In this document: in pieces, positions 1,733 through 23,300 of the stretch
How the letters are laid out: every line of letters begins with the position of its first letter
Numbering within the stretch: the first letter of the stretch is position 1
Origin: Eubacteriales bacterium
Lineage (GTDB): Bacteria > Bacillota > Clostridia > Oscillospirales > CAG-272
DNA length: 64,000 nucleotides
Assembly: GCA_045596925.1 (NCBI GenBank)
Contig: JAZODH010000058.1
Coordinates: 5,791 to 69,790, forward strand
Direction of reading: 5' to 3'
Translations under genes and position numbers: made by a program
The notes under the pieces: model-generated
What the model was told of the DNA's origin: nothing
Database searches by the model: none
The model's input: only the letters and a program-made list of their open reading frames with translations

Positions 1733-4700
1733 TATTTGGTCGGTGTCAATGTCCACCGCCTCACCCAGAGGCAGAGAATAGATGCAGACCCTTGACGGTT
1801 CCCGTCCGAAGACCTTCTTCACCGCCTCGCGGTAGTAGGAAAGCTGTTCGCGGTGACGCTCCGTCAGCTTTTTCACCGCCAAAGCGGTATCGTCTTTTTC
1901 TTCCTGCGTCAAATAGTCGGTCTTATAGTCCGCAAGGATCAGCTCGCCGTTTTCGTTCTCAAAAACAAGGTCGATAACACCCTGTACGGCAAGCTTTGTA
2001 TCGCCCAGAGACATTGCTGTCTCCTTACTCTCGGTGAATTTCGATGCAGGCAGAAGCAGGTTGAATCTCTGCTCACGCCAGATCCTCCTCGCCCTTGAAA
2101 GAGAGGCGAAAAATCCGCTCTCAAAAAATCTATCAATCTGCCGAAAATTCATCAGCTCTATGCTTTCTTTGAAGATAAAGCCCTTGTGCGCCAACCTCTG
2201 AGCCTCTGCTCTCGCGCCTGATCGACGAGCATTTTCAAAATCGCAGAACTGCATAAACAGGTGTGTGGCAGTTCCCCTGTCGGCACCGTTTGCCCGCTCC
2301 CTGTCATCCAAAAGGAAGGCGGGCGCAACTTTTATCTCGGGAATTTCGATCTCACGATCGTCGCTCTCCCGCTCGGCGGTGTCAAGCACACCGGGATAAA
2401 GCCTTGAAACAGAAATTTTCGCGGGAACTCCAACAAATCTGTCGTCATATTTGAAATTAAATCTTTCAAGGAACAGACGCTTGTATTCTTCGATCTTTTC
2501 GGGGTCGGCCGCCTCGGTCTCACTCTCCTTCCGTTCAAGCGGGACGGGAGCTTCAACGTCATAAGGCTCAAGGTCGCGCACACAGCACAAGCCCTCTTTT
2601 CCGCTCAGCGCCGCCGAGATCCATATATCCCAGGTCGATGCGTTCATGACCCCGTAGGGGTGGGGATTTCGCGCCAGCTCCGCAATGTTGCGGAAGCGGG
2701 TTTCACCCGTGTACGAGCCGACCAGGAAAAGTCTTTCGCGGGCACGGGTCATGGCAACGTAAAGAACGCGCATTTCCTCCTCGCTGTCTTCCAGCGAATT
2801 TTGCTGTTTTATTGCCTCTGTAACGGGATTACGCAGCACCGCCAGTCCCGTCTTATCGCGGAAGGAGGCGGACACGCCGATCTCCCGTGAAAAAGCCACC
2901 GCACTTGAATCCGATCGATTCATGCTTCTTCCGCAGGAGGTGATAAAGCACACGGGAAATTCAAGTCCCTTTGATGAGTGAACGGTCATTATGCTGACGA
3001 TGTTGCTGTCTCCGCTCCGCCCCGCAGGCTCCACCGTCTGCTTTGCCTCGATTGTGTCTCGGATGAAGCAGATAAAGCTGTAAAGTCCTTTAAACGAGCC
3101 CGACTCAAAGTTCCTTGCGTACTCGTAGAGCACAAGCAGATTGGCGCGCCGTTCGCGAACGGCGTAGTTGTCCTCACCCTCCTGTCCGGGTGTGGCAAAG
3201 GACAGCATATCCGTATCAAAATAAAGGTATCTGAGCAGCTTATCAACGGGCAGGACTCTCGCCTGCTCACGGTAGAGTGCCAGCTTTTCCGAAAAATATC
3301 GTATTTTCTCGGCAATCTCACCCTCCTCACGCTCCGCCGCCTCGCAAAGATTGTCGTAAAGTGAAAGACCCTTGGTCCCTCTTTTTCTTATCCTTGCAAG
3401 CTCGTCCAGGTTGAAGCCGTAAAGAGGCGAGCGCAAAAGCCCCGCCAGGTAAACGTCCTTTTGAGGATTGTCGATGACGCTCAGCAGACAGATGGCAAGA
3501 AGCACCTCGGGGTTTTCAAAATAGCTTTCCGCCGTCAGGGTCGAGCATGGGATACCCGCCCGGTCAAGAGTTTCGGCAAAAGCCGCTGCCGCCGCCTTAG
3601 TCCTTGCCAGGATCGCTATGTCTTTCGGCTCGATCCGACGGAGCACTCCGCGATCCTCGCAGTATTCCTCACCGCGCAAAAGCTCGCTTATTCTCGCCGC
3701 AACGTATTTTGCCTCGTGCTCGACGCCCTTTCCGCCGTACCTCTCTGGGTCAGCCTTGTATTCCTTTGATCCCGCCGTGTAAGAGCGGATCATGGCAAAC
3801 TCTGCCTTTTTCTGCTCGCGCCCTTCGGGAGCTATGTTCTTGGAGCAGACCAGCGCGTCCTTTTCCACGTAACCGATAGAGTTTACGCCCTTTGAAAAGA
3901 TGAAATCCGAGACCGCGTTTGAAAAATCCACCACTCCGCGGTCACATCTGAAATTTTCGGACATATAAATGGCGCACTCGTCTCCCCCGTCCGACGCTTC
4001 CGCGTCGGGGAAGGTGTTTTTGTAGCCCGCAAAGACCGTGGGATTTGCGCCCCTGAAGCGGTAGATGCTCTGCTTGATATCGCCGACCATAAAGCGGTTG
4101 TCGGGACGGGAAATTGCGCGAAAAATCGTGTCCTGCACAAGATCCGTGTCCTGATATTCGTCGATATAGATGGCATCAAACCTCTGCGAGAACTCCTTTG
4201 CGTACTCGGTGGGATTCAGACCCTCGTCCACGAACAGACGCAAGGTCATTCTCTTGTTGTCTGTAAAATCGAGCACGCCCAGTGCGCGCTTGCGCTCGGT
4301 AAACCGACGGTCAAACTCCCGTAGCAGACCGTATATTTCACGGCAGAACAGAGCGTTTCGGCGCAGTATCTGTGCACAAGCCTCCTCGCTCTGGGAGAAA
4401 TATTTGTCCCTTAATTTTACGTAACCCTTTTGCAGGTCGTCCTGCAGGGCGGCAAAATTCACGCTCTCCTCGGTCTTTTTCTTTACGCTTCCTCTTTTGA
4501 TCCTTGCGTAGGAGCAGAAAAGTCTGCGCGCCTCGGCGTAATTCCCCGAAACAATGGCATCTCGGGTGTGGGAAAAATGGTCACGGTCGTAAAGGACCGA
4601 AGGATAATAGCAGGCAAGGTCGCCTCCCTGCGCCTCGTCACAAAGACGGGACACGGCAGAGACGGCGTAGTCGAGAAAATCAAGGCAGAAGCCTTTTACG

Positions 4701-5335
4701 GCCCTGCCGCTTCGGCTCTCAAAATAGGGTGCTTCAGACTCCTGTTCAAGAGTCTCGCCGTCCACCCTGAGAAATTCCAGAAATTCGGGATATCCCGACA
4801 GCTTTTCGTAGAGTGAGATAAGCTCCTTTTCAGCCGAACTCGATCCTCTGCTGTCAAGAAAGCAATCCATGGCAACGGCGAAATCACTGCTCTGCTCATA
4901 TCGCTGAGAAATTAGAGCAGAAAGTACCTCGCGCATGATTATGGCACGCTGATTTGAATCGATTATGCGTGAGGACGCTCCCACCCCCAGCGCCTGGAAA
5001 TTCTCCTTTACCACGTCGTAGTAAAAAGAGTCCATGGTGCAGATCTTTGCCCGACCCAGCTTCAACAACTGGCGGTTAAGATGCCTGTTTGAAGGATCTG
5101 CGGCAAGCGCTTTTGATACTGCCGCAGTGATCTTTGAACGCAGATCGGCTGCCGATGCGTTAGTAAAGGTGACGATAAGAAAACGTCCGATATCCGCAGG
5201 ATTTTCCTTGTCCGTGAGCAGTCGGATTATGCGCTCGGTCAGGGTCGTGGTCTTGCCCGAGCCTGCGGCGGCGGAGACGAGGATAGTTTTATTTCTTGTT
5301 TCTATAGCCTTGTTTTGTGCTGCTGTAAAAGCCAT
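1730..5335 (-). CDS. addA: ATP-dependent helicase/nuclease subunit A (AddA, UvrD-type helicase + C-terminal nuclease)
   Basis: 1201 aa. Walker A AAAGSGKTT near the N-terminus, UvrD-like motifs (DEYQDT), and a C-terminal PD-(D/E)XK-like region (DLVFENENGELILADYKTD). Immediately downstream of addB. Confidence 0.9.
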   Translation of the reverse strand: MAFTAAQNKAIETRNKTILVSAAAGSGKTTTLTERIIRLLTDKENPADIGRFLIVTFTNASAADLRSKITAAVSKALAADPSNRHLNRQLLKLGRAKICTMDSFYYDVVKENFQALGVGASSRIIDSNQRAIIMREVLSALISQRYEQSSDFAVAMDCFLDSRGSSSAEKELISLYEKLSGYPEFLEFLRVDGETLEQESEAPYFESRSGRAVKGFCLDFLDYAVSAVSRLCDEAQGGDLACYYPSVLYDRDHFSHTRDAIVSGNYAEARRLFCSYARIKRGSVKKKTEESVNFAALQDDLQKGYVKLRDKYFSQSEEACAQILRRNALFCREIYGLLREFDRRFTERKRALGVLDFTDNKRMTLRLFVDEGLNPTEYAKEFSQRFDAIYIDEYQDTDLVQDTIFRAISRPDNRFMVGDIKQSIYRFRGANPTVFAGYKNTFPDAEASDGGDECAIYMSENFRCDRGVVDFSNAVSDFIFSKGVNSIGYVEKDALVCSKNIAPEGREQKKAEFAMIRSYTAGSKEYKADPERYGGKGVEHEAKYVAARISELLRGEEYCEDRGVLRRIEPKDIAILARTKAAAAAFAETLDRAGIPCSTLTAESYFENPEVLLAICLLSVIDNPQKDVYLAGLLRSPLYGFNLDELARIRKRGTKGLSLYDNLCEAAEREEGEIAEKIRYFSEKLALYREQARVLPVDKLLRYLYFDTDMLSFATPGQEGEDNYAVRERRANLLVLYEYARNFESGSFKGLYSFICFIRDTIEAKQTVEPAGRSGDSNIVSIMTVHSSKGLEFPVCFITSCGRSMNRSDSSAVAFSREIGVSASFRDKTGLAVLRNPVTEAIKQQNSLEDSEEEMRVLYVAMTRARERLFLVGSYTGETRFRNIAELARNPHPYGVMNASTWDIWISAALSGKEGLCCVRDLEPYDVEAPVPLERKESETEAADPEKIEEYKRLFLERFNFKYDDRFVGVPAKISVSRLYPGVLDTAERESDDREIEIPEIKVAPAFLLDDRERANGADRGTATHLFMQFCDFENARRSGARAEAQRLAHKGFIFKESIELMNFRQIDRFFESGFFASLSRARRIWREQRFNLLLPASKFTESKETAMSLGDTKLAVQGVIDLVFENENGELILADYKTDYLTQEEKDDTALAVKKLTERHREQLSYYREAVKKVFGREPSRVCIYSLPLGEAVDIDTDQI

Positions 5336-5336
5336 A

Positions 5337-8300
5337 TTACGTATCCTCCTCGTCGTCGTATTTCATGGTCAGCGCCCGTCGGCAGACCGCACGCATTCCG
5401 CAGAAATTGCAAGGGCTGTCCTTGCCGTCGGACTCAGCGATCGAAGCGTCGCCGTCCGTCATTTGGGAAATTATCGAGCAGACTACGTGGGACAGCCGTC
5501 GGTTCAGCTCCTCAAAGCCGTCGCCGTCGGAGGTGATGCACTTGTCCTGACTGCCCTGCTTTTTTATGACGCTTTCGTCGCTTGTTACGACACCGCTTCG
5601 GCTTATCTGCCCATCGGCCGACCGCAGGACATCCTCCTCGCCGGTGTCGGCGCTTTCTTTTATACCTCCAAGCTTTGAGGACAGGTAGACCGCGCCGGCG
5701 GGCAAAAGTCTGCCGCCCTCTCCGCAGCCCATTTTAACACGGCTCTCCTCCTGCCCGTAGCAAATGTTGAACAGGTAAAGAAGTATCTGGATATTGAGTC
5801 CGCTCTCAACGTCGTCGATCTTAAAATGCTTTGCGCCCGTTTTGTAGTCCACCACCCTGACGTAAACGTCGTTTCCGCGTTTCATCAGATCCACGCGGTC
5901 AACGATACCGGAAAATACCGCCGTCTTTCCGTTTGCCGTGCGATATTCCGCGGGGCTTATCTGCGCATCCTCACCGTAGCCGATCTTCATTTCAAAGAAG
6001 GTAGGTACAAATCCGCTGCTCTTGAACTCTCCCACCACGTTGCCCGCAAGCACGCGGGAAAGACGCTTTAGGCGTGCAAGAGTGTGACGCATTTTGGCGT
6101 TGTCCGCTTCGCCGGGCAAACGCTCGCGGGCGTATTTTTCGATAAGGTCGGGCAAGGTATCAAGCCTTTGCGCCGCCAGCTCTGCATTAAATCCGTTTTC
6201 GTCGGTAACCGAGCGGATAAACTCCTCCAGCACCGCGTGGACCAGCGTTCCCGTATCGTTGACGGAATAGAAGTTTCGCTCGTCCTTTTGAAGCTTCAGA
6301 ACGTATCTGCAATAGTAATCAAAATGACATTTGACATATTTTTCAAGAGCCGACGGAGACATCGAGAGCCTGTCTCCGAAGACCTCGTCTGCCGTCTCGC
6401 GTGAGATCGATTGTGAATAGGTGTCGCTGTCGAAGATTCTCCTGTAATACCGTCCGCCCTCACCTCCGTCTTCCTTCAGGATCGAGCGCAGGGCGATGCC
6501 CTGAGCACCCTCTCCCAGAAGAGACGCATATTCAAGGGCGATCTTCGGAGTCAGAAGCCTGTCGGCAATAGGTGACTCGGAAAAATCAAATTCCTTCATT
6601 CCCAGGAGCAATTTTATACGGTTGTAAGCCATGGAGGGCAATCTCTCGCCGTCCCCCTGAAGCTTGGCATAGGAATAGGAAACGTACAGACCCACAGAGG
6701 GGCTTGTCACGGCGCGGTAAACGTAGAAAAGCTCCTCGGCACACTTGTCCGTGCCGTCCGAGGAAAGGCTTATGCCAAGAGAAGAAAGCTCTTCTCTCTC
6801 CGTATCGGTCAGAAGACTCTTATCATCGGCGTTTTGCGGAAAAACGCCGTCATTCATACCGATAATAAGCACGTATTTGGGGCGGTCGGCACGAAGCATA
6901 TGCGCCGAACCTACCGTCACCTCGTCGCAGGAGGTGGGAATAGCTCCCACCGTAACATGAGAGAAAACGGTGGTCAGAGCCTCCTCCAGCTCCTGCGAGG
7001 TAAAACGCTCTCCGTCGTTTTCAAAGCTCGCTATCATATCGAGAATATCTATCACCGAATTGTAAAGGGTAACGGTCTCGGCGGCATTTCTTCTCATACC
7101 GTCATCGGCGTATCTTTCGGCCTCTGCCGAAAGCCGGCCCGCCACGTCAAGGGCGCACATATAATCGAAAACCGCACGGGCAAGATCAGCATTTGTGCGT
7201 GCCCGATCAAGCGCGCCGAAAAAAGCGGACAAGGGCTCGCTCACCCGACGCCTTGCTCGGTTGACGCACTCAAGATAGGCAAGATCCTCCTCACGAAGCT
7301 CTCCCAAATAGGAGTGAGGATTCATGGTCCAGTCGTCTCCGCAAAAGGCGCGTCCCGACAGGCTCCAGCGCCATACGTAATCCTCAAAAAGGTCGGAGTC
7401 CCTCTGGTACGCTCCGCAAAGACCCGTTTTCACGTAAGAAATAACGTCCTCGGTCTGCCAGGAGCGGTTTTTGATGCGCAGAGCGCAGAGAAGCAGTTTT
7501 ATAAGGGGCTTGGACGACACGTCGGTGCGAGCGGACATATAAAATGGTATCCCCGCCTTTTCAAGGGAGTGGTCGATGATCCCTCTCCAGGACTCGGCAC
7601 TTCGGGCAATAACGGCGATCTCGCCGTATTTTGCACCCTCCCGCACAAGTCGTCCGATGTGGCATGCCGCCGCCTCAGCTTCCTCGTATTCGTTGGCACA
7701 TTTAACGAGAGTGACGCTTCCGTCATCGGGCAAGACTTCGCCGCCAACTGCCGAAAAGCTCCACAAATGGCGCTCTAGCACACGCAATGCCTCACTTTCG
7801 GTCCGTCTGTTGTCGGGCAGATAGGTCACACAGGGCTTGATATTTTTCTTTTCCGCCTGCAAAAGAAAGAAATCTACCGTCTTTTTCGACGCCTCAAAGT
7901 GCATGGGCAGAGGCTTTTGGTCGCAGAAGCAAACAGCCGCCGTCACGCTGTGCGCGCCGTCGATCATTCGGGAGATTATTCTGTGCTCCTGCTCAGTGAA
8001 GCTCAAAAAGGAATCTATGTAGACACTCATGCCGTCAAAAAAATCGTTTTCCGCCAGCACCGAGTCAAGCCTTGAAAGCTCGTCCGAGCCGTCACCGTAG
8101 GCCTCAAGTGACGCTTCATACGCCGCACAGATAAGAGAAATATCCCTCAGTTTTCCGCCCAGAGTACTGTTTTCCTCCAGCTTGTCTGCCGCCCTCTCAA
8201 GCTCGGCGGGACTTACACAGCTCGCCTTGAATTCCTCTGCCGCCGAAAGCATAAGAGAAATAAGAGACAGGTCTCCTCTGACCCCGCCGTATTTGCGCAA

Positions 8301-8606
8301 AAAGGGACGGAGAGAGGTCACCGTGTTCCACATGGTCAGCGCCTTTACGCCCTCGGAGATCCCGTGGCGTGAAAGCCCGCCGTACTGTCTGAAAACGCGG
8401 TTTGCAAGGCGCGTAAAATTCAGCACCTCAAAGCAGAGCTGTGCCGAGGGCGGCAAAAGAGAGAGCATTCGCCTCTCCGCCGACACCGTCTCCTGCTCGG
8501 GAACAAGCAAAATGACCTGCCGTCCGCTTTCAATATCCTTTTTTATATTTTCTTCGATCTGGGTAGTCTTTCCGCTGCCCGATCCGCCAAGTATCAAATT
8601 AAGCAT
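5337..8606 (-). CDS. addB: ATP-dependent helicase/nuclease subunit B (AddB) with C-terminal Fe-S nuclease domain
   Basis: Walker A GGSGSGKTT sits 7 aa after ATG 8606. Cys cluster KCHFDYYC ... CNFCGMRAVC at the C-terminus. The track ORF extends to TTG 8645, which would form a TTGA overlap with the upstream stop, so the start is ambiguous. Confidence 0.85.
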   Translation of the reverse strand: MLNLILGGSGSGKTTQIEENIKKDIESGRQVILLVPEQETVSAERRMLSLLPPSAQLCFEVLNFTRLANRVFRQYGGLSRHGISEGVKALTMWNTVTSLRPFLRKYGGVRGDLSLISLMLSAAEEFKASCVSPAELERAADKLEENSTLGGKLRDISLICAAYEASLEAYGDGSDELSRLDSVLAENDFFDGMSVYIDSFLSFTEQEHRIISRMIDGAHSVTAAVCFCDQKPLPMHFEASKKTVDFFLLQAEKKNIKPCVTYLPDNRRTESEALRVLERHLWSFSAVGGEVLPDDGSVTLVKCANEYEEAEAAACHIGRLVREGAKYGEIAVIARSAESWRGIIDHSLEKAGIPFYMSARTDVSSKPLIKLLLCALRIKNRSWQTEDVISYVKTGLCGAYQRDSDLFEDYVWRWSLSGRAFCGDDWTMNPHSYLGELREEDLAYLECVNRARRRVSEPLSAFFGALDRARTNADLARAVFDYMCALDVAGRLSAEAERYADDGMRRNAAETVTLYNSVIDILDMIASFENDGERFTSQELEEALTTVFSHVTVGAIPTSCDEVTVGSAHMLRADRPKYVLIIGMNDGVFPQNADDKSLLTDTEREELSSLGISLSSDGTDKCAEELFYVYRAVTSPSVGLYVSYSYAKLQGDGERLPSMAYNRIKLLLGMKEFDFSESPIADRLLTPKIALEYASLLGEGAQGIALRSILKEDGGEGGRYYRRIFDSDTYSQSISRETADEVFGDRLSMSPSALEKYVKCHFDYYCRYVLKLQKDERNFYSVNDTGTLVHAVLEEFIRSVTDENGFNAELAAQRLDTLPDLIEKYARERLPGEADNAKMRHTLARLKRLSRVLAGNVVGEFKSSGFVPTFFEMKIGYGEDAQISPAEYRTANGKTAVFSGIVDRVDLMKRGNDVYVRVVDYKTGAKHFKIDDVESGLNIQILLYLFNICYGQEESRVKMGCGEGGRLLPAGAVYLSSKLGGIKESADTGEEDVLRSADGQISRSGVVTSDESVIKKQGSQDKCITSDGDGFEELNRRLSHVVCSIISQMTDGDASIAESDGKDSPCNFCGMRAVCRRALTMKYDDEEDT

Positions 8607-8641
8607 TTGATTTAAACCGTCCTCCAAAATCAGATTTGGTT

Positions 8642-9463
8642 TCAATTATCTTCAAAGAGCTTCAGATTTCTCAGGATCGTCTCTTTTCCGCGCCAGGAAT
8701 ATGCGCGGTCGTCAAATTCCTCATCGGTCATTTTCTCAAGTTCCTCGACCGTCAGGGTCGGCAGACAGCTTTCCGAGAAAAAATCCACGGGAGAATAGAT
8801 GGTTCCGTCTTTTTTCGCCCTTTGGGTATGGGGACACGCCGTCTGGCACCTGTCACAGCCCCACACAAGCCCGTGTCGAAGGATCTTCTCCTTTTCCACC
8901 TCGGTCAGCTCACCTTTCTTCTGGGTCAGGGCCGAAAGGCACTCCCCCACCGAAAGGTCGACGGGACAAGCACATGAGCACAGCCCGCAGTTTTCACAAA
9001 ACCGGATCTCCTTGATCTCACTCTGCAGTTCAAGGTCTGTGATGATCTCACCGAGAAAAACGAATGAAGAATATTTTTCGGTAATGAGCAGGTGGTTTCG
9101 CCCGATGATGCCGAGTCCCGCCTTCGCCGCCCCGTTCACCTCGTCAATAGGGGAATGATCCGAGAAAAAGCCGAATTTTGAGAGCGGAAAATCCTTTGCA
9201 AATGCCTGCGAAAACCGCTGACAAAGCTCTTTAAAATACAGATGATAGTCCTGCGGGACAGCGTAAAGCGAGACGTTTCGGTTTTCACTTTCCGCCGCGC
9301 GACTGTAATAGGGTACAGCGAAGATCACTGCGCTTCCACCCGTCACACCGCACCTCTCAAGCAGATACGGACGAATGATCTTGCAGTCGTCAAGAGGAAG
9401 AAATCCGAAAAGCTCGATCCTCTCCTTTTCAAAAAAATCTCTGAAAAACTGCTCTCCGCTCAT
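8642..9463 (-). CDS. Epoxyqueuosine reductase (QueG)-like 4Fe-4S protein, short form
   Basis: 273 aa. GLGIIGRNHLLITEKYSSFVFLGEIITDL, CENCGLCSCACP and GCDRCQTACPH resemble the QueG core. Its ATGA overlaps the abcF stop. Confidence 0.6.
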   Translation of the reverse strand: MSGEQFFRDFFEKERIELFGFLPLDDCKIIRPYLLERCGVTGGSAVIFAVPYYSRAAESENRNVSLYAVPQDYHLYFKELCQRFSQAFAKDFPLSKFGFFSDHSPIDEVNGAAKAGLGIIGRNHLLITEKYSSFVFLGEIITDLELQSEIKEIRFCENCGLCSCACPVDLSVGECLSALTQKKGELTEVEKEKILRHGLVWGCDRCQTACPHTQRAKKDGTIYSPVDFFSESCLPTLTVEELEKMTDEEFDDRAYSWRGKETILRNLKLFEDN

Positions 9464-11406
9464 ACCTCGGTCTCCTCGTAGATCTCAAGCAGACGCTCCT
9501 CGATCTCGTTTTTTCGTCCGTCAAGCTCGGCGGCTCTTACGTAGTCGCTGGCGGCGTCGCCGTAAAGCTCCGCTTCGATCTGCTCAAGCTCGCTTTCCAG
9601 CTTTTTTGCTTCAAGACGGAGCTTTTCCATGCGCTTTTGCTCACGGCGAATGTCCGCCTGAGAACGCTTCTTTTCAAGGTAATTGGTCTTCTCCTCGGTC
9701 TGCTCCTTTACGGCAAGCTCGGGGTGGGAAGCGTTGTAAGCGTCGACGCGCTTTTGTCTGAATTCCCTGTATTCGTCGTAACCACCCTGCCCTGCGTGAC
9801 TGATGCGATAATCAAGCAAGTCGCCCGTGTCGCAGAAATCGCCGGGTGCGATCTCAAGGATCCTGGTTGCCAGCCGGTCGATAAAATATCTGTCGTGGGA
9901 AACGGTGACAATGGTTCCGTCAAATTTTTCAAGCGCCTCCTCCAAAACCTCACGGGAATTTATGTCCAGGTGGTTGGTAGGCTCGTCCAAAACGAGCAGA
10001 TTCATGTGGGACAGTATCAGCTTGCAAAGGGTGAGCCTTGCGCGCTCGCCGCCGCTGAGAACTCCCACCTCCTTGAAAACATCCTCTCCGATAAATCTGA
10101 AGAGCGCAAGAGCGTTTCTTATTTCGGTCTCCCTCATCGTGGGGTATGCGTTCCAGATCTCGTCAAGAACGGTATTTGCGGGATCAAGATTCTGGTTTTC
10201 CTGGTCGTAATAGCCGATCTCCACGTTGTAGCCCGTCTCAACAAAGCCTCCTGTGGCGACGGTTTTGCCCAGAAGTATCTTTATAAGGGTGGATTTTCCG
10301 CATCCGTTTGCGCCCACAATGAACACACGCTCGCGCTTCTTTATCATAAATGAGATCTTGTCAAAAAGCTTCTTTTCGCCGTATGCCATGGACAGATTTT
10401 TCGTCCAGATAACGTCGTTTCCGCTCTCGCCGCTATGGTTGAAGCTCATGCGGATAGACTTGGGATCGTTCTCCGGCTTGTCCAGCTTCACCATGCGGTC
10501 AAGGGCCTTCTGACGGCTCTCGGCGGCGATGATGTTGCGCTCGCGATTCCACGCCCTCTGTTGCTCGATGTAAGCCTCCTGGCGCGCGATCTCCCTCTGC
10601 TGATTTTTGTAGTGCCTTTCCTGGATCTCCCGATCCTTTTTTCTTTGCTCCATGCTCTGGGTATAAGAGCCGTTGTAAAGCTTCCCGCGGTGGTTTCCGA
10701 CGTAAAGCGTTTTATTTGTGATCTTGTCAAGGAAATATCGGTCGTGGGAGACCACGATCACGTTCTTTTTATAGGAAACAAGATAATTTTCAAGCCAGGT
10801 AAGCGTCTCGATGTCCAGGTGGTTGGTTGGCTCGTCAAGTATAAGGATGTCCGGCTCGCGGCAAAGCTGACGCGCCAAAGCAAGTCTCGTTCTCTGACCC
10901 CCGCTGAGAGCGTCCACGTGCAGGGACTGTTCCCGCTCGTTAAAGCCCATTTTAGACAGAATTGAGGCGCAACGGGAACGGAATTCAAGTCCGCCCGCGT
11001 CAACGAATCGAGTGTAAAGCTCGGTATATTCCGCCGCTCTTGCCACTTGGTGAGGGTCGTTTTCGTCCTTCATTTTTTCTTCAAGCATTGCCAGCTTCCG
11101 CTCGGCAGCCAGATGCTCGGGGAAAGCGGTATACATCTGCTCGATGACCGTCCCTCCGCACTCCTCGGAGACCTCAAAGGCCCCCTCCTGAGTGAGTATT
11201 CCCACAGTCTTGTCCTTTGAAATGTAAACACTTCCATGATCGGGCTCAAGCTCGCCCGTGATCAGGCGCAAAAGGGTGGATTTTCCGCTTCCGTTGACGC
11301 CGATGACGCCCAGCTTGTCCCCCTCTTCAAGGGAAAATGAAATATTTTCTATAATTACCGTCGTCCCCACCGAAAAGGAGAGGGACTCAACGCTGATCGA
11401 TGTCAT
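9460..11406 (-). CDS. ABC-F family ATPase (two ABC domains plus charged C-terminal coiled coil)
   Basis: 648 aa with two Walker A motifs (GVNGSGKST, GANGCGKST), two LSGG signatures and no TM segments. Confidence 0.85.
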   Translation of the reverse strand: MTSISVESLSFSVGTTVIIENISFSLEEGDKLGVIGVNGSGKSTLLRLITGELEPDHGSVYISKDKTVGILTQEGAFEVSEECGGTVIEQMYTAFPEHLAAERKLAMLEEKMKDENDPHQVARAAEYTELYTRFVDAGGLEFRSRCASILSKMGFNEREQSLHVDALSGGQRTRLALARQLCREPDILILDEPTNHLDIETLTWLENYLVSYKKNVIVVSHDRYFLDKITNKTLYVGNHRGKLYNGSYTQSMEQRKKDREIQERHYKNQQREIARQEAYIEQQRAWNRERNIIAAESRQKALDRMVKLDKPENDPKSIRMSFNHSGESGNDVIWTKNLSMAYGEKKLFDKISFMIKKRERVFIVGANGCGKSTLIKILLGKTVATGGFVETGYNVEIGYYDQENQNLDPANTVLDEIWNAYPTMRETEIRNALALFRFIGEDVFKEVGVLSGGERARLTLCKLILSHMNLLVLDEPTNHLDINSREVLEEALEKFDGTIVTVSHDRYFIDRLATRILEIAPGDFCDTGDLLDYRISHAGQGGYDEYREFRQKRVDAYNASHPELAVKEQTEEKTNYLEKKRSQADIRREQKRMEKLRLEAKKLESELEQIEAELYGDAASDYVRAAELDGRKNEIEERLLEIYEETEV

Positions 11407-11419
11407 TTTTTACTCCTAA

Positions 11420-12055
11420 TTAAAATCTTATCTTTAATTCCTTTGCAACGCCCAAAATCCGCGCACTTCCCGCCTCAAAATCCTCGGGGGTCAGCTCGAT
11501 GGGTTCGTAATCCTCATTTTCGGGCATGAGCAATATTCTCCTGCCGTCTCGATGGAAACGCTTGACGGTCGCACTGTCGTCTCCCACGAGACAGGCAACG
11601 ATGTTCCCCTCCTCGGCGTATTGCTGCTTGCGGAAAAGAACCAGGGAACCGTCAACCATTCCGCAGTCCTTCATGCTGTCGCCGCGGACGGACAAAAAGA
11701 AGTAATCCGACACGTCCTCACCGCGCCTGATGTCCGCCGACTCGTAGCCCAGCAAAGTCTCGTTGGTAACGATAGGCGCACCTGCCCGTATCTCGCCCAC
11801 GATGGGCACGCGTAAAGCGCCCCTGGGGCGGGAGGTGCTCTCAATATCCCGCACAGGCATAAAATCCTCGCCCATGAGAGATTCAAGGGACACGTCGAAA
11901 TATGCCGCTATTTTTTGCATTTTGTCGAGCTTTGGGGTGGAACGTCCGCTCTTCCAATCGCTGAAGGTGGAATTTGAAATTCCCGTCTCCTTTGCCACCT
12001 TGTAGGTGGTCGTCCCTCTTTCGACAAGAAGTTGTTCAAAATTTACATAACTCAT
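11420..12055 (-). CDS. XRE-type HTH repressor fused to an S24 (LexA/CI-like) self-cleaving peptidase domain
   Basis: N-terminal HTH (TTYKVAKETGISNSTFSDWKSGRSTP). C-terminal S24 motifs VRGDSM (Ser) and ATVKRF (Lys). It lacks the winged-helix N-domain of LexA proper. Confidence 0.8.
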   Translation of the reverse strand: MSYVNFEQLLVERGTTTYKVAKETGISNSTFSDWKSGRSTPKLDKMQKIAAYFDVSLESLMGEDFMPVRDIESTSRPRGALRVPIVGEIRAGAPIVTNETLLGYESADIRRGEDVSDYFFLSVRGDSMKDCGMVDGSLVLFRKQQYAEEGNIVACLVGDDSATVKRFHRDGRRILLMPENEDYEPIELTPEDFEAGSARILGVAKELKIRF

Positions 12056-12085
12056 TCTATCGAGTCCTGCCTTATCTTGTAGATT

Positions 12086-12114
12086 TTGCTTAAAGTTTTA
12101 TTTTTTGCTAAAAT
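12086..12114 (+). promoter_or_regulatory. Candidate promoter P0 (TTGCTT-17-TAAAAT with TGn)
   Basis: TTGCTT 12086-12091, 17-nt spacer ending TGC, TAAAAT 12109-12114. The region is AT-rich, so false positives are possible. Confidence 0.35.
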
Positions 12115-12118
12115 GGGG

Positions 12119-12147
12119 TTGACAATATTACGGATTTGCGATATAAT
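12119..12147 (+). promoter_or_regulatory. Perfect consensus sigma-A promoter P1 driving the Zn-ribbon/sigma-like genes
   Basis: TTGACA 12119-12124, exact 17-nt spacer, TATAAT 12142-12147. Confidence 0.7.
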
Positions 12148-12160
12148 TACGCCATACTAT

Positions 12161-12174
12161 TTCGGTTTACCGAA
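12161..12174. promoter_or_regulatory. Candidate operator: inverted repeat TTCGG-N4-CCGAA between the two facing promoters
   Basis: TTCGGTTTACCGAA is flanked by direct ACTATT copies and lies in the predicted overlap of the P1 and P2 transcripts. Confidence 0.4.
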
Positions 12175-12196
12175 CTATTACGGGTTTCATAATCAC

Positions 12197-12225
12197 ATTA
12201 TAACCCCATTTATCGAATTTGTCAA
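12197..12225 (-). promoter_or_regulatory. Perfect consensus sigma-A promoter P2 driving the XRE/S24 repressor
   Basis: Read on the minus strand: TTGACA (12225-12220), 17-nt spacer, TATAAT (12202-12197). Confidence 0.7.
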
Positions 12226-12267
12226 GTAATATCAAAAAACACGAAAAAGAAAGGTAAATGACAAAAA

Positions 12268-12531
12268 ATGTGCAAATTCTGTAAGCAGGTACATTGCCCC
12301 GAGAACTGCCCAAGCTACGGGCTTTTGCCACCCGATTATTCGAACAGACCCCGACGTTTTTGCAGAATTTGTCTGGGGCTTATCCCCTCGGGCGACGTGG
12401 CGTACAGATTTGGAAAAAAGTTTGTTTGCTTTAACTGCACCGAAGAAATGGACGTTCCCGATCTAATGCGGATTTGCGAAATCGAGAACCGCCGCGAGCT
12501 TATCTCAATCTTGGGATTCAGCGCCGACTGA
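12268..12531 (+). CDS. Small Cys-rich (putative zinc-ribbon) protein, unknown function
   Basis: 87 aa with CxxC...CxxxC...CxxC...CxxC (CKFC, CPENC, CRIC, CFNC). First gene downstream of P1. Confidence 0.55.
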   Translation: MCKFCKQVHCPENCPSYGLLPPDYSNRPRRFCRICLGLIPSGDVAYRFGKKFVCFNCTEEMDVPDLMRICEIENRRELISILGFSAD

Positions 12532-12542
12532 GGAGGATCTTT

Positions 12543-12941
12543 ATGCCAAAGACCAATACCGGCAAGTACGCCGACGTGAAAAATTTTCTCGAAAGCTACC
12601 TTATAAATAAAAAAATGATCGAGATGCTGGCATACGAGCGGGAATATTTCGGAGCACAAAGTCAGGGAGACGGTTTTCTCATGCTCCCGGGCGGCGACGA
12701 GGTGATCTTACGCTCGAAAATGTTCAACGTGCGAAAATTTATAACCACCCTTGACAACAACAACTGCAAATTACTTCTATATTACCACTACATACGCGGA
12801 AACTCGGTCGAAAAATGCGCCGAGCTGTTGGGGATCAGCCGCACAAGCGGATTTCGTCTGAAACGCCGCGCGCTTGAGCTGGCGGCGGACAAATATTATG
12901 CTCTGTTCGATCCCGACGGAAAGCCTGTTTCTTCTTTTTGA
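12543..12941 (+). CDS. Sigma-70 region-4-like / phage late-activator-like (DUF1492/ArpU/RinA-type) DNA-binding protein
   Basis: ATG 12543 follows GAGGAGGATCTTT. The C-terminal HTH LLLYYHYIRGNSVEKCAELLGISRTSGFRLKRRALE resembles sigma region 4. The track ORF start 12474 overlaps the previous gene and lacks an RBS. Confidence 0.6.
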   Translation: MPKTNTGKYADVKNFLESYLINKKMIEMLAYEREYFGAQSQGDGFLMLPGGDEVILRSKMFNVRKFITTLDNNNCKLLLYYHYIRGNSVEKCAELLGISRTSGFRLKRRALELAADKYYALFDPDGKPVSSF

Positions 12942-12972: not shown

Positions 12973-13001
12973 TTGACAAACGAGTTTTTATGTGGTAAAA
13001 T
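12973..13001 (+). promoter_or_regulatory. Candidate promoter of the DUF2975-yozG-like operon
   Basis: TTGACA 12973-12978, 17-nt spacer ending TGG (extended -10), TAAAAT 12996-13001. Confidence 0.6.
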
Positions 13002-13042
13002 GCAGTCACAGTCAAATTTTACCCGAAAAGGAAGAAACGAAA

Positions 13043-13516
13043 ATGAAAGACCAAACGAACAAAATACCTTTCGCCACCGTCATAGCCATGGCAATGACGA
13101 TCCTGACCGCACTGCTGGTCGTGGCAATGACTATTTTTCTGCCCGCAATTCTCGATTTCTATCTTGAATACGTCAGCGGCGGGAACGCAAGCTATATCAG
13201 CACTCACAAAACCCCCGTCCTTATCCTGCTCTACGCGGCGCTCATTCCCGTTTACGCGGCGGTATCGGGACTGTTCCTTCTTCTCTCAAACGTTCATCGC
13301 GACCTGATCTTCACCCGCTCGTCGGTCCGTCTTATCAGCCTGCTTTCGGCTTGCTGTTACGCAGAGTCGGTGATATGCGCCGTCCTTTCCCACTATTTCA
13401 TTCTGGGTGCTGTGCTCTGCTTTGCGGCGCTTCTTCTCGGAACTCTTATGCTGGTAGTCCGCTCGGTAATCGCGCAGGCTGCCGAGATAAAAGCGGAAAA
13501 CGATTTTACCGTGTGA
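13043..13516 (+). CDS. DUF2975-family membrane protein (YoaS-like)
   Basis: Four hydrophobic helices and the characteristic C-terminal AEIKAENDFTV tail. Paired with a YozG-type HTH gene. ATG 13043 is preceded by GGAAGAAACGAAA. Confidence 0.7.
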   Translation: MKDQTNKIPFATVIAMAMTILTALLVVAMTIFLPAILDFYLEYVSGGNASYISTHKTPVLILLYAALIPVYAAVSGLFLLLSNVHRDLIFTRSSVRLISLLSACCYAESVICAVLSHYFILGAVLCFAALLLGTLMLVVRSVIAQAAEIKAENDFTV

Positions 13517-13525
13517 GGTGGCATC

Positions 13526-13747
13526 ATGATAATAGTTAATCTTGACGTTATGATGGCAAAGCGGAAGATCTCCCTGGGCGAGCTTGCGGACAGGGTAGGA
13601 ATCACCCCCGCAAACCTGTCTATTCTGAAAACAGGAAAGGCCAAGGCCGTCCGCTTTTCCACCCTTGATAAGATCTGCAGGATCCTTGACTGTCAGCCTG
13701 CGGATATTCTCGAATACGAATACTCCGAAAACGAAATGGAGGATTGA
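13526..13747 (+). CDS. YozG-type (Cro/C1) HTH transcriptional regulator
   Basis: 73 aa. MAKRKISLGELADRVGITPANLSILKTGKAKAVRFSTLDKICRILDCQPADILEY is the typical YozG-family sequence. Confidence 0.85.
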   Translation: MIIVNLDVMMAKRKISLGELADRVGITPANLSILKTGKAKAVRFSTLDKICRILDCQPADILEYEYSENEMED

Positions 13748-13749
13748 AT

Positions 13750-15291
13750 ATGGATAACAGCTTTGCTCCTCAGCCAACTCCCGTCACCCGCACCGAGTAC
13801 GGCAAGACCGACGTGTCTTTTGCGTGGATCTCGATACTGCTGGGCTATCTTATGGTGCTGGCGTGGCCCGGTGCGCAGTACCCGCTGGGAATGTTTCTTT
13901 TCACCGCGCTCTGCTACGGCGTCACCTTCTATTACGTCAAAAAGCAAAACGGCAATCTGCGCGGCGCGCGTTTATCTCTGCCCGTCAGCGCGCTCGTGCT
14001 CAATTTCGGGCTTCTCATAAATTCAAACCACACAGTCTTACGTTCGGTAGTAGCATACAGCTTTTTCGCTTACGTTTTGTGGGTCTACACCGCCTTTGAC
14101 GGCGAAAAGGAGCGTTCCCCCTTTGACGCATACCTTGTGCCGGGGCTGGGCAAAGCCCTGACGGTGCTTCCCTTTGGCTCCTTTTTCTCTGTTTTTGAGA
14201 GCAGCAGTCAGATAAAAAGCACAACGGGAAAGCAGATAACAAAAACTCTGCTTCGCATCGTTCTCGGTCTTGCCATCGCTGTGATCCCCACGATAATCAT
14301 CATGCTTCTCCTGTCATTTGACGAGGGCTTTTCTCGAATAGTAGACAGGATTTTTGACTTCGACCTGTCGGGAATTTTCCGCCACATCGGAAAATTCATT
14401 TTGGGAATCCCCGTTGCCATGTACCTTTTCGGACTTCTTTATTCCGCGTCCTCGGGCAGATACGGCCGCGGGATCAACCGCGAAAAATGCGACAATGCAG
14501 CAAAAAAGGTCAGATTCACGCCCGTAGCTATGGTCTGCGCCGCTCTGACCCCCATTATCTGCCTTTACGGTATATTCTTCTTTGCCCAGCTTGAATATTT
14601 TATTTCCGCGTTTTCGGGCACTCTTCCCCCGCACTTCACCTACGCTCAATACGCCCGTGAGGGCTTCTTCCAGCTTTGCATCGTTTCGGTACTGAATCTC
14701 ATAATGCTGGCGTGCGCCTACCTTTTCTGCCGCCGACGGGACAAAGCACCCTTGATCTTAAAGATCTACTGCACCGTTCTCTCCGCGCTGACACTGGTAC
14801 TCATCACAACTGCACTTTCCAAGATGATAATGTACATCGACACCTACGGGCTGACCGTCCGCCGCGTGCTTGCAAGCTGGTTTATCATTCTCATTGCCGC
14901 CGTTTTTATCTGCATCGTGGTTGCCATATTCGTAAAAAGCTTCAACCTGACAAAATCTTTGTTCTTCGTTTTCCTCGTGCTTTTTGCCCTGCTGGTTTTC
15001 TGCAACGTGGACGGAATGTGCTATTCCTACAACGCCAACCGTTGCATTGAGGGAACTCTTGACATCTCGGCGTTCGAGGGTCCCGAATACAGATACGGCA
15101 TCCACATAGATGAGTTTGCCGTCACCGCCCTTGACAAGATCGCCCGTGAGACTCCCGACTCAAAAAGCGGTGTCTGGGCAAAGAATCAGCTTCAGGCTGT
15201 GGCAAACCACGATCCTTACCTCGAAGACGGCTTCTTTTCGCAAAATCTACCTCGGATTTTACGTGAACACGTGCTGAATAAGTATAGATAG
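13750..15291 (+). CDS. Large polytopic membrane protein (DUF4153/DUF4173-like), unknown function
   Basis: About 513 aa with more than 10 hydrophobic segments. ATG 13750 lies 7 nt after GGAGG. The family assignment is from memory only. Confidence 0.65.
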   Translation: MDNSFAPQPTPVTRTEYGKTDVSFAWISILLGYLMVLAWPGAQYPLGMFLFTALCYGVTFYYVKKQNGNLRGARLSLPVSALVLNFGLLINSNHTVLRSVVAYSFFAYVLWVYTAFDGEKERSPFDAYLVPGLGKALTVLPFGSFFSVFESSSQIKSTTGKQITKTLLRIVLGLAIAVIPTIIIMLLLSFDEGFSRIVDRIFDFDLSGIFRHIGKFILGIPVAMYLFGLLYSASSGRYGRGINREKCDNAAKKVRFTPVAMVCAALTPIICLYGIFFFAQLEYFISAFSGTLPPHFTYAQYAREGFFQLCIVSVLNLIMLACAYLFCRRRDKAPLILKIYCTVLSALTLVLITTALSKMIMYIDTYGLTVRRVLASWFIILIAAVFICIVVAIFVKSFNLTKSLFFVFLVLFALLVFCNVDGMCYSYNANRCIEGTLDISAFEGPEYRYGIHIDEFAVTALDKIARETPDSKSGVWAKNQLQAVANHDPYLEDGFFSQNLPRILREHVLNKYR

Positions 15292-15580: not shown

Positions 15581-15600
15581 ATTCATGTTCGTCAAATAGT

Positions 15601-15637
15601 AAGAACCCGACAGGACTTAAAAATCTGTCGGGTTCTT
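15601..15637. terminator. Bidirectional terminator hairpin
   Basis: AAGAACCCGACAG (15601-15613) / CTGTCGGGTTCTT (15625-15637), a 13-bp stem between convergent genes. Confidence 0.75.
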
Positions 15638-15672
15638 ATCATTCTTATGAGAAGCTGCCTTTACACCGTTTT

Positions 15673-20356: not shown

Positions 20357-20393
20357 AGGCTGAATTGTTATATAAAATATGGGAAAGGGTTTT

Positions 20394-23300
20394 ATGGCTC
20401 GGAACATGACAAGGAAATCACGTATTCATACCTTTATTTTTTTGCTTATGCTGATAGCTTCCGTTTTTGCGGCAACCGTCTTTGCGAACAGCGCCGACGG
20501 AACCATCTCGGTCACTTCATCAGATATAACCAGCGGAAAGGTCACCGCCACGGTGAAAATTTCGGGCAACCCCGGCATTTCGGGCATGAGCCTGAAGCTT
20601 TCCTTTGACCACACGAAGCTGACACCCGTGTCCTTTGACACGTCAAAGGGTATATACTCCGAGGCATACTCAAACGTTACCGAGGATGGCGCAGACCTGA
20701 CGGCAATGGATGCTGTCACCTATTTCTTCGCATCTTCCGACGATATCAAAAAGGACGGCGAGCTTTTCAGCGTCACCTTCAGTGTATCGGAGGCGGCGGT
20801 GGGCACCACCGACCTCAGCATCTCCTTTGCACAGGGTGGCGTGACCAACTCAAAGTATGAAAACCTCAACCCCGACGTGTCGGGCTGCACCATCGACATT
20901 TCAAGCGCAAGATACCCCGCGGGCGTTATAACTCTTGAGAGCGAGCACCTGGGGCTTGATTACTACCGCGTCAACGTGGGTCTTTACGGCAATCCCGGTA
21001 TTGCGGCGCTCAGATTCAAGCTGGTGCTTTCAAATTCTATCGTCGTCCGCTCCGTGGACTTTGACGGCATATTTGATAAGGTCACCTCAAACTCCACTCA
21101 GCCCGGCGTGACCCTTTCGAGCCTTCATGACATCACATACAACTACACAAACACCGAAAATTCAACAAAAACGGGTAAGCTTTTCAGCTTCACCTTCCGC
21201 CTGGTCGACGGCTTCGGTCGGGTAAGCGTATCCTATGCAAACGGAGATATCGTAAATTCCGAGCTTGAAATGCTCTCTCCCCACAGATCCGCTCTGACCT
21301 TCGGTACACTTGACGTTGCGACCGTTTCCTTTGACGCAAATACAGATCTGTCCCTGAACGACGAGACCCCTGCGGAGATCACGTTCGTCAAAAACGGATA
21401 CATCACTCTTCCCTTCTGCCCCGAGCGTGAAGACAAGGCGTATTTCCTCGGTTGGTCGGAATCAAAGAATGCCACATCTGCCGCCTATAAGCCCGGAGAA
21501 AAATACCTTGTCACACAGGACGTGACTCTTTACGCCGTCTGGACGGTCAGGACCTACACGGTGACCTACAACGCAAACGGCGGGTCAAACGCCCCTGCCA
21601 CGCAGACCAAGGTCCACGGCGCTCCCATAACCCTTTCAAGCGCGATACCTACAAGAGCCAATTACGATTTTGTGGGCTGGTCGGCGCTCAAAAACGGCAC
21701 GGCGGCGGATTACGCGGCAGGTGACGTTTTCGCCGAGAACGTTTCAGTCACCCTTTACGCCGTTTGGCGTCCCCATGAATATAAAATAATCTTTGATGCA
21801 AACAGCGGCGCAAACGCGCCTGCGCCTGCTACAAAATTCTACGGCACCGATATAACTCTCCCCGCGGAGATCCCCTCAAAGCCGGGCTTCGGATTTGCGG
21901 GTTGGTCTGACACTGAAACGGGCAGCGCAAAATATCTCCCCGGCGCGACCTACGCAGCAAACGGGAACGCTACTCTCTACGCCGTTTGGACAAGCGACAA
22001 GTACGACGTCACCTTTGACGCAAACGGAGGAACAGGCGCGCCCGCAGTACAATCTCCGGCACAGACTTTCGATCTTTTCCTACCTCTGACCACCCCCGAA
22101 AAGATCGGCTACTCCTTCCTTGGCTGGTCCGAGTCAAAGAGTGCGACCACGGCCGACTACAAGCCGGGCGACGTATTCTCAAAGAAGACCTCAACGACCC
22201 TTTTCGCAGTATGGGAGATCGCAAAATACACCGTAACCTTTGACGTAAACGGAGGCGAGGGCAGCTTTACTCCTCTCACCTTCAGCTTCGGCGGCTCGGC
22301 AACGCTTCCCACCGCAGCCCCCACAAAAACCGGATTCGATTTTCTTGGCTGGGCGGAAAGTCCCGATGCCGTGACGGCGGAATATACCTCGGGCTCCGCC
22401 TACGCGTACAACCGCTCCGCTACCCTCTATGCAGTCTGGAGCGCGCATAAATATAAGGTAACCTTTGTGGCAAACGGCGGAACGAATGCACCCGCCGCAC
22501 AGTACAAGCTCCACAATACAGACCTTCGTCTGTCCGCCGTGAAGCCCATCATGGAGGGCTACGTTTTCCTTGGCTGGGCAGAGAGTACCGACGCTCTTGA
22601 GCCTGCTTACAAGGCGGGCACCCTTTACACGGAAAACAGAGATATCACTCTCTACGCCCTGTGGACCCCTGCCACCTACACGGTCACCTACGACATCAAC
22701 GGCGGTAACAGCGGAACGGTGGGTACAGAAGAAAAGATCCACGGAAAGCCCCTGGTCATCGCTTCCTTCTTCCCCACGAAAACAGGCTACACCTTCCTGG
22801 GCTGGGCATATTCCCCCGATGCTCTGACTCCCGATTTCAAGGCAGGCGATCTCTACCGCGAGGAGGCGGACGTGACCCTTTACGCCGTCTGGACGGCAAA
22901 GGAATACACGGTAACATACGATGCAAACGGCGGCACGCTTGCCCCCGGAGCACAAAAGAAGCCCCACGGTGCAACCCTCACCTTAGTAAACGTCAAGCCC
23001 GAGTACAAAGGCTACGTCTTTATCGGCTGGTCTACCGCCCCTGACGGAACGACGGTCGAATACCTGCCGGGTGACCTGTACAACGACGACGCCGATCTTA
23101 CCCTCTACGCCACCTGGTGCGAGGAAGCAAGCGCGTTAAACACTCAACTGAACGTAAGATCAATGGGAGGCGGCAAGGTGAAGGTGGAGATCCTTCTGAC
23201 CTCGAACCCCGGAATCACCTCCCTGTCCCTCAGACTTGATTTTGACCGCACCAAGGTCAAGCTGGTCGAGATCGCCTCAAACGAGGACGACGAGCCGGAA

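Follow-up and report, generated by a model that had tools for sequence, protein, structure and literature searches.

A probable SOS-type switch around a co-opted phage-type repressor in uncultured Clostridia

What does a phage-type repressor control when it stands in a bacterial chromosome with no phage around it? The question is raised by a 64,000-nt stretch of contig JAZODH010000058.1 (GCA_045596925.1) from an Eubacteriales bacterium, hereafter the window, whose positions serve as coordinates throughout. The window encodes a 211-amino acid (aa) repressor with an XRE helix-turn-helix (HTH) and an S24 domain, here called REP, and, divergent from it, an 87-aa mini-protein with eight Cys residues (the Cys protein) and a 132-aa sigma-region-4-like protein, here called SIG; P+ and P- denote the plus- and minus-strand promoters of this module. 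An earlier note on this DNA had recognized the three open reading frames (ORFs), all of which are confirmed by their coordinates, and had read them either as a domesticated, DNA-damage-responsive cassette with a sigma-like output or as what is left of a decayed prophage or satellite. The elements of the module are as follows:

9460–11406, minus strand: ABC-F ATPase, 648 aa, co-directional with REP and 13 nt downstream of it
11420–12055, minus strand: REP, 211 aa, repressor with an XRE HTH and a LexA-type S24 autoprotease domain (Pfam HTH_3, Peptidase_S24)
12119–12147, plus strand: P+, perfect TTGACA-N17-TATAAT promoter of the Cys–SIG operon (12/12 in the promoter scan)
12129–12140, plus strand: operator box A, TACGGATTTGCG, in the P+ spacer (family motif TWCGGAWWTSCG)
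12161–12174 and 12178–12189, plus strand: tentative, degenerate box-like elements between the predicted starts, the palindrome TTCGGTTTACCGAA and TTACGGGTTTCA
12197–12225, minus strand: P-, perfect TTGACA-N17-TATAAT promoter directed towards REP and ABC-F (12/12 in the promoter scan)
12268–12531, plus strand: Cys protein, 87 aa, with its stop 11 nt before the SIG start
12464–12482, plus strand: operator-like copy TAATGCGGATTTGCGAAAT inside the Cys ORF, at the codons for M-R-I-C-E (ATG CGG ATT TGC GAA)
12543–12941, plus strand: SIG, 132 aa, sigma-region-4-only and DUF1492/Ltr-like, with ATG at 12543 and GGAGG upstream

Our analysis supports a model that we regard as probable, whereby the module is a vertically inherited, chromosomal switch of the SOS type that is spread over a large clade of Clostridia, uncultured and mostly from the gut, and is organized around a co-opted phage-type repressor. 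Judging from its sequence, the module is most likely a DNA-damage circuit; we call it SOS-type because a LexA box lies at the orthologous promoter of a sister lineage and because the determinants of REP cleavage are intact. The first of the two earlier readings is thus well supported by the presence of the module in dozens of genomes, its housekeeping flanks, the co-evolution of REP with ABC-F, and the sister-lineage LexA box. The second finds no support as a recent event, the module being conserved at the species level, and the possibility that homologs occur only inside intact prophages is contradicted by dozens of chromosomal species loci and by a SIG family without phage copies.

Conservation of the module and its repressor

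A species-level scan, in which each species was represented by one genome, gave 80 loci encoding SIG relatives that are 34–92% identical to the SIG of the window. All come from metagenome-assembled genomes (MAGs) of uncultured Clostridia, Eubacteriales or Oscillospiraceae, many of them from gut or rumen, and approximately 10 kb of flanking DNA was sampled per locus. Of these 80 loci, 60 have a divergent REP gene next to SIG; the window brings the REP-containing loci to 61, and their REP proteins are 54–92% identical to that of the window. Clustering of the flanking ORFs defines a conserved core in which ABC-F and REP on the minus strand are followed by the small Cys ORF and SIG on the plus strand; the outer flanks vary and encode housekeeping functions (Pfs, LuxS, MscL, HAD hydrolase, DUF421, Rnf, rubrerythrin). 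This gene-neighborhood survey had been suggested in the earlier note, and two further look-ups returned the same neighborhood. Two contigs of a single MAG (RGIG9137), represented by L021 and L057, each carry REP, the Cys gene, and SIG, reflecting either two copies or redundancy of the bin.

The ABC-F gene, previously taken for an unrelated flank, belongs to this core: it is present in 56 species loci, follows REP after a median gap of 14 nt in 44 loci, and is presumably co-transcribed with REP from P-. Its product is a genuine ABC-F ATPase, matching the ribosomal-protection-like NCBIfam family NF000355 with 455.5 bits (cutoff 380). The median pairwise identity is 64% for REP and for ABC-F alike, and the two identity matrices are correlated (Spearman 0.68; Mantel 0/500 permutations), arguing that REP has long been inherited together with a housekeeping neighbor. 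Some REP–SIG pairs occur without ABC-F.

REP matches HTH_3 at 1e-9, Peptidase_S24 (PF00717) at 7.8e-24 (84 bits, well over the curated threshold of 23.3), and the transcriptional repressor family phrog_4 at 1e-34. Residues A91-G92, Ser127 in the GDSM motif, and Lys165 in the VKRF motif are invariant across 28 aligned homologs, show the same conservation in a 58-homolog alignment that includes E. coli LexA, and align with A84-G85, S119, and K156 of the latter; A91-G92 is the predicted cleavage bond and Ser127 and Lys165 form the predicted catalytic dyad. In agreement with these data, the earlier note had seen an XRE HTH together with the S24 Ser and Lys motifs, and its reservation that the dyad might prove not to be conserved is answered by the alignment. 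Its description of REP as CI-like rather than LexA proper holds for the N-terminal domain, an XRE HTH (HTH_3/HTH_26) in place of the LexA winged helix, but not for the C-terminal domain, which in PDB searches matches LexA C-terminal domains at 3e-16, UmuD at 2e-6, and lambda CI at 1e-4 and is by sequence LexA-like rather than lambda-CI-like. The TIGR00498 (lexA) model scores REP at 100.2 bits, below its cutoff of 110.95, and aligns with residues 73–195 only. GAAC-N4-GTTC, the LexA operator of B. subtilis and clostridia (PMC4234289), is absent from the intergenic region of the window that holds the promoter of REP itself, the sole match in the window lying far from the module at 63305. With both its N-terminal domain and its operator departing from those of LexA, REP is not a canonical LexA.

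The nearest phage repressors share only 31–42% identity with REP, suggesting that a phage origin of REP is likely, but ancient; searches for phage copies of REP with a single sequence and with a 28-sequence profile gave only distant repressors of 37–42% identity. Neither the 64 kb of the window nor the flanks of the species loci place REP in a lysogeny module, as would be expected of a prophage CI: integrase, cro/antirepressor, replication, structural, and lysis genes are all missing there. The one phage REP-like locus that we inspected, L084, is a classical integrase/CI/Cro module; between its CI-like repressor and its integrase lies a 125-aa ORF consisting of an S24 domain only (8705–9082).

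Promoters, operator boxes, and the sister-lineage LexA box

P+ and P- both match the sigma-A consensus and stand face-to-face in the REP–Cys intergenic region, so that transcription from either one has to pass through the other, and P- would read through the boxes into REP and ABC-F. Of the 61 REP-containing loci, 59 have a perfect P+ and 53 have a perfect P- as well; in 43 of these 53, the predicted starts are 0–4 nt apart, while in the group of the window the distance is approximately 36 nt. The earlier account of the intergenic region had contained neither these promoters nor the operator boxes described below. Perfect 12/12 promoters number 215 in 1.1 Mb (L001–L082 and the initial 26 kb of the window) against roughly 0.1 estimated by chance, and about two thirds of the 215, again by estimate, belong to the module.

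Position counts over 59 loci yielded a 12-bp box motif, TWCGGAWWTSCG. In addition to the box in the P+ spacer, a second box lies just upstream of the P+ -35 element in most species and a third near P- in some. Exact boxes are concentrated in the module, with 97 inside module intergenic regions and five outside them in 1.14 Mb, where about two would be expected outside (estimate). Three of the outside boxes of REP-lineage loci were inspected; two lie in coding sequence and one, in L078, is intergenic and ambiguous. Further members of a REP regulon in the window and the 1.14 Mb of flanks were considered and rejected, the outside boxes being at chance level. The window itself has exact matches only at 12129–12140 and at 21888; the latter, inside the cohesin/dockerin gene at 20379–23747, is probably a chance match. 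The elements at 12161–12189 are kept in the close relatives L001, L002, and L005, and with two to three mismatches to the motif we assign them as boxes only tentatively.

The box accompanies REP even where the Cys gene is lacking, and it is absent where SIG remains but REP and the Cys gene are missing. This pattern of co-occurrence suggests that REP is most likely the protein that binds the TWCGGAWWTSCG box. The alternative that the box is a site for SIG itself is less likely, because the box is missing from every locus that has SIG but neither REP nor the Cys gene. In five loci the Cys–SIG pair lies away from REP and still retains promoter and box, implying control by REP in trans. The intergenic region gave no second conserved motif; Rfam detected neither a riboswitch nor an attenuator in the module, and the predicted fold of the 5′ untranslated region is not significant (z -1.2). 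A further candidate site lies within the Cys ORF, where positions 12464–12482 are 84% identical to 12126–12144 (direct repeat D13) and match the box motif with one mismatch. The ATT, TGC, and GAA codons show no synonymous variation among the 11 loci with the RICE motif, and this copy could be a distal looping operator or a coincidence of the conserved peptide.

Support for a link to the SOS response comes from the loci that lack REP. In all ten loci without REP and without its box, AGAAC-N4(A/T-rich)-GTTC(G/T) lies 5–18 nt downstream of the P+ -10 element, and nine of the ten form one coherent SIG subclade. An eleventh locus, L082, has kept the Cys gene and has two LexA-type boxes flanking P+. 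In REP-bearing loci the GAAC-N4-GTTC pattern occurs at chance frequency, inside ORFs, and with mostly G/C-rich spacers. Because the canonical LexA box stands at the same perfect P+ promoter, SIG, and with SIG the opposing ABC-F promoter, is by its sequence an SOS-regulon locus in the sister lineage. These data point to an exchange of repressors at one promoter, in which the co-opted phage-type repressor would have replaced LexA control, or the reverse. In two species with the LexA box, L025 (1394–2279) and L037 (9109–10001), SIG is placed directly after rnfE-rnfA-rnfB and not opposite ABC-F, indicating that the SIG promoter and its LexA box move as a unit. Searches of the sampled DNA for canonical lexA and recA matched only the REP C-terminal domain.

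Outputs, a candidate mechanism, and rival explanations

SIG matches phrog_36 at 3e-8 and phrog_248, annotated as transcriptional activator, at 1e-5; among 43 SIG relatives, phrog_248 is matched by all and DUF1492 at E<=0.01 by 41, with a best value of 2.9e-6. The AlphaFold2 (AF2) model (pLDDT 84) consists of a long N-terminal helical hairpin followed by a sigma-region-4-like domain that superposes on region 4 of SigD, SigL, and sigmaE with a TM-score, normalized to the target, of about 0.65–0.7 and a root mean square deviation of about 2.1–2.5 Å. The structural matches span about 60 residues of region 4 and include no sigma-2 domain, and the matches of sigma hidden Markov models (E>=0.008) are likewise confined to region 4. 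Sigma factors of the sigma-70 family have regions 2 and 4, and the lack of region 2 sets SIG apart from them; model and sequence together characterize SIG as a sigma-4-only, Ltr-like DNA-binding protein. This is consistent with the earlier impression that its C-terminus resembles sigma region 4 or a phage late activator. Searches for phage copies of SIG found none in IMG/VR (family motifs) and none by tblastn in 50,697 phage genomes.

Most loci have a small, modular Cys ORF between REP and SIG. Its product combines a Cx2Cx4Cx3CP knuckle at the N-terminus with a CxxC...CxxC ribbon and a helical C-terminal 'LMRICE...LGF' tail. The four Cys pairs described earlier correspond to C2, C5, C10, C14, C32, C35, C54, and C57, all of which are invariant in 34 relatives that share just 26–38% identity. 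Only eight close homologs were found, and a full HMMER search of 1.84 billion representatives gave 53 clusters, of which 52 are standalone proteins of 59–99 aa. No curated family in Pfam, NCBIfam or PHROGs covers the protein; among 43 members of its family, there are only sub-threshold LIM and FYVE matches and none to an anti-sigma or zinc-ribbon family. A PDB sequence search with the SIG profile gave no informative match.

On the other side of the module, P- may drive a long operon, as suggested by the tight co-directional junctions from ABC-F to addA; AddAB, the helicase-nuclease of double-strand break (DSB) repair, would then be under a REP-controlled promoter in the lineage of the window. 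The genes beyond ABC-F, and those next to SIG, are as follows:

1730–5335, minus strand: addA
5337–8645, minus strand: addB
8642–9463, minus strand: queG-like gene, co-directional with ABC-F, as are addB and addA
12973–15291: DUF2975 membrane protein, 73-aa HTH_26 (YozG-like) regulator, and DUF4153 membrane protein, with an extended -10 promoter (11/12)

The junctions between REP, ABC-F, the queG-like gene, addB, and addA measure 13, -4, -4, and +1 nt. The order addA-addB-queG-like-ABC-F recurs in L001, L002, L086, and L088, and in L001 and L002 it is followed by the same three genes with a different right flank. addB together with the queG-like gene is found in just 10 species loci, placing this extension outside the core as a lineage-specific feature. 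The DUF2975-YozG-DUF4153 cluster was rejected as a part of the module: it is common to just five close relatives and, as the earlier note had stated, has its own promoter.

In our model, REP dimers bound to the boxes would, in uninduced cells, occlude P+ and roadblock transcripts from P-, and this roadblock would result in negative autoregulation of REP and ABC-F. Upon DNA damage, RecA*-stimulated self-cleavage of REP at A91-G92 would free P+, and the Cys protein and SIG would then be made together and act as partners. SIG, similarly to the late activators of the Ltr type in phages, might switch on genes located away from the module. P- would rise as well, providing more REP to reset the switch and more ABC-F and, in the lineage of the window, possibly more QueG-like protein, AddB, and AddA.

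If this model is correct, a repressor replacement is visible in place, with one promoter under LexA in one lineage and under a domesticated S24 repressor in another, fitting the recently proposed route by which self-contained, divergently transcribed units rebuild SOS networks. The Cys protein and the sigma-4-only regulator would constitute an uncharacterized second tier of the DNA-damage response in gut and rumen Clostridia, whose regulon could cover lysis, bacteriocins, division arrest or the control of sporulation. An ABC-F translation factor, and possibly AddAB here, would be tied to an SOS-type promoter, a link that we did not find described in the literature consulted. With predicted starts that almost coincide, the face-to-face perfect promoters might in addition be a compact natural model of promoter competition. 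It is tempting to speculate further that SIG and the Cys protein form a damage-induced, metal- or redox-gated two-part factor, in the manner of Wbl proteins and sigma region 4 but in Firmicutes, with the Cys protein as an obligatory partner and a hidden, unlinked regulon, that ABC-F adjusts translation during the SOS response, and that REP is the LexA replacement of the clade; we consider this extended scenario doubtful.

Several observations weigh against the model. REP is assigned as box binder from position and co-occurrence, and LexA-like proteins can be RecA-independent, as exemplified by IrvR (PMC7101444). SIG matches DUF1492 (PF07374) at E 7e-4 with 20.2 bits, short of the gathering score of 21.5, and its context is chromosomal, with neither a terS downstream nor the downstream direct repeats of LtrB genes; by score as well as by context, SIG therefore falls outside the true phage LtrB proteins. 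The Foldseek E-values of its model are weak (0.02–0.1), though the probabilities are approximately 1. Neither a target of SIG nor a repeat that it might bind was found, there are no conserved repeats after the SIG stop codon, and the genes downstream of SIG differ between loci, the neighboring DUF2975-yozG cluster in the window having a near-consensus promoter of its own. The AF2 model of the Cys protein is poor (pLDDT 60), so that its suggested partnership with SIG follows from gene order.

The rival that survives best is that REP is the global SOS master regulator of the clade, a non-canonical LexA such as those in Bacteroidetes, with more boxes at recA, uvr, and other genes; the locus would then simply combine the autoregulated REP gene with divergent SOS genes. 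The REP family is far larger (more than 1168 protein clusters at E<=1e-30) than that of SIG (about 144), REP is as conserved as a housekeeping gene and has a LexA-like C-terminal domain, its boxes stand in for LexA boxes at the same promoter, and it apparently acts in trans on the five distant Cys–SIG loci. Moreover, 865 kb of REP-lineage flanks contain no clear Cheo box, and precedents for such regulators exist (PMC8565304, PMC13148647). This idea is countered by the chance-level frequency of exact boxes outside the module and by the lack of a box of their own at addAB and mfd in the window; the outside-box comparison has little power because the sampled DNA contains no recA or uvr promoters. 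Altogether, we judge a global role to be unlikely, if by no means far-fetched.

A RecA-independent S24 repressor that senses another stress, such as heat, envelope stress, redox or, via the Cys protein, metal, appears improbable to us. Precedent is provided by IrvR/IrvA of S. mutans, in which a LexA-like repressor divergent from a regulator autocleaves without RecA (PMC7101444), and by HdiR, which responds to heat as well (PMC8565304), and eight invariant Cys residues would suit a redox or metal sensor. The LexA box at the orthologous promoter of the sister lineage nevertheless points to DNA damage as the ancestral input, and in REP the Ala-Gly, Ser, and Lys set and the LexA-like C-terminal domain are intact.

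SIG and the Cys protein could instead be a local counter-regulator, similar to Cro, Apl or MOR, or a dedicated regulator of ABC-F, the unit then being a self-contained, bistable switch with ABC-F (and AddAB) as its one real output. Adjacency of ABC-F and SIG does survive the loss of REP and the Cys gene in eight loci with a LexA box, L009, L027, L029, L039, L041, L043, L045, and L052, and L082 retains it together with the Cys gene; face-to-face promoters with near-coincident starts would suit mutual exclusion, as in phage 186 (PMC3675496), and SIG has no conserved downstream target. By profile and fold, however, SIG resembles activators and sigma region 4 and not Cro-type repressors, both promoters already have the perfect consensus and need no activator, the intergenic region offers no second conserved motif, and REP–SIG pairs exist without ABC-F, making a purely local role very improbable.

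The earlier note had found no phage body near the module, and this holds for the whole window: its 64 kb contain no phage genes (integrase, structural or other), no tRNA genes, and no att-like flanking repeats, and the annotated genes are of the housekeeping type (SpoIIIAH, AddAB, Mfd, MreBC, PBP2, HisZ/HisG, a cohesin/dockerin protein). A recent decay of a prophage, satellite or integrative and conjugative element that left only an immunity region and a late activator behind is already contradicted and hardly conceivable: the phage-like architecture of REP, the DUF1492 and PHROG similarity of SIG, and a GC content of 42–49% over 11.7–13.2 kb against approximately 52% elsewhere would suit it, but the dip coincides with AT-rich intergenic regions, more than 55 genomes at the species level share the arrangement and have housekeeping flanks, REP and ABC-F evolve together, the window lacks phage hallmarks, and the SIG family lacks phage copies.

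Three features elsewhere in the window are recorded here for completeness. The ORF at 45726–47315 encodes 529 aa with a HisZ-like part (tRNA-synt_His, residues 17–300) and a HisG part (372–523) and looks like a HisZ-HisG fusion heading a his operon, the operon being judged by gene lengths. The 1122-aa protein encoded at 20379–23747 has a cohesin domain, a dockerin at its C-terminus, and eight Listeria-Bacteroides repeats, pointing to a surface system of the cellulosome type. A 19-bp inverted repeat at 15595–15643 between convergent genes, the source of the only, sub-threshold Rfam hits of this region, is probably a bidirectional terminator.

Comparison with known systems

Co-opted S24 repressors that control themselves and divergent genes in the DNA-damage response have been described as FddR in Francisella and HdiR in Lactococcus and Streptococcus (PMC13148647, PMC8565304). 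As far as sequence can tell, the module is of this type: REP joins an XRE/CI-type N-terminal domain to an S24 autoprotease, is chromosomal and conserved throughout the clade, has an operator in its own leader, and is divergent from its presumed target genes. The outputs differ, since HdiR controls umuC cassettes or recA and FddR lineage-specific genes, whereas here they would be an ABC-F protein, an eight-Cys protein, and a sigma-4-only protein. The operators differ as well (GTG-N11-CAC for FddR, TWCGGAWWTSCG here), and the module described here adds face-to-face perfect promoters and an exchange with a LexA box that is visible at the orthologous promoter.

The two-tier logic of the proposed mechanism is matched most closely by PrtR/PrtN of Pseudomonas aeruginosa, in which RecA-activated cleavage of a chromosomal CI-like S24 repressor frees a small activator of genes elsewhere (PMC8609362). 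PrtN is unrelated to SIG, and its targets, the pyocin genes with their P-boxes, are known and partly adjacent; the module has no tailocin or bacteriocin cluster nearby, while PrtR/PrtN has neither a Cys partner nor an ABC-F gene. SIG itself resembles the activators at the end of the cascade from CI to Ltr proteins (RinA, ArpU, LtrA, LtrB) in its DUF1492 and PHROG similarity and its sigma-region-4-like C-terminal domain. DUF1492 (LtrB) proteins activate phage late operons, and expression of ltr requires relief of CI repression after SOS induction (PMC3753634). Ltr genes lie in prophages just upstream of terS, and the binding sites of their products are direct repeats that follow the ltr gene at once; the chromosomal SIG gene, by contrast, is followed neither by terS nor by a conserved gene or conserved repeats.

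Among Firmicutes, the autoregulated canonical LexA of B. subtilis is divergent from the SOS-induced gene yneA, an arrangement that resembles that of REP, an S24 repressor divergent from a small effector gene. The LexA-like C-terminal domain of REP and the LexA box of the sister lineage extend this likeness; the XRE HTH, the operator other than GAAC-N4-GTTC, and the score below the TIGR00498 cutoff set REP apart. Face-to-face promoters with close starts are also found in the promoter switch of phage 186, in which the starts are tens of bp apart; in the module, they are predicted to be 0–4 nt apart in most species and approximately 36 nt apart in the window. In coliphage switches of the 186/P2 type, strong convergent promoters and one repressor give transcriptional interference or mutual exclusion (PMC3675496), and the proteins involved are unrelated to those described here. 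Relative to HdiR, FddR, and PrtR/PrtN, this co-opted S24 unit is a new form with an unusual set of presumed outputs, an ABC-F protein, an eight-Cys mini-protein, and a sigma-4-only regulator.

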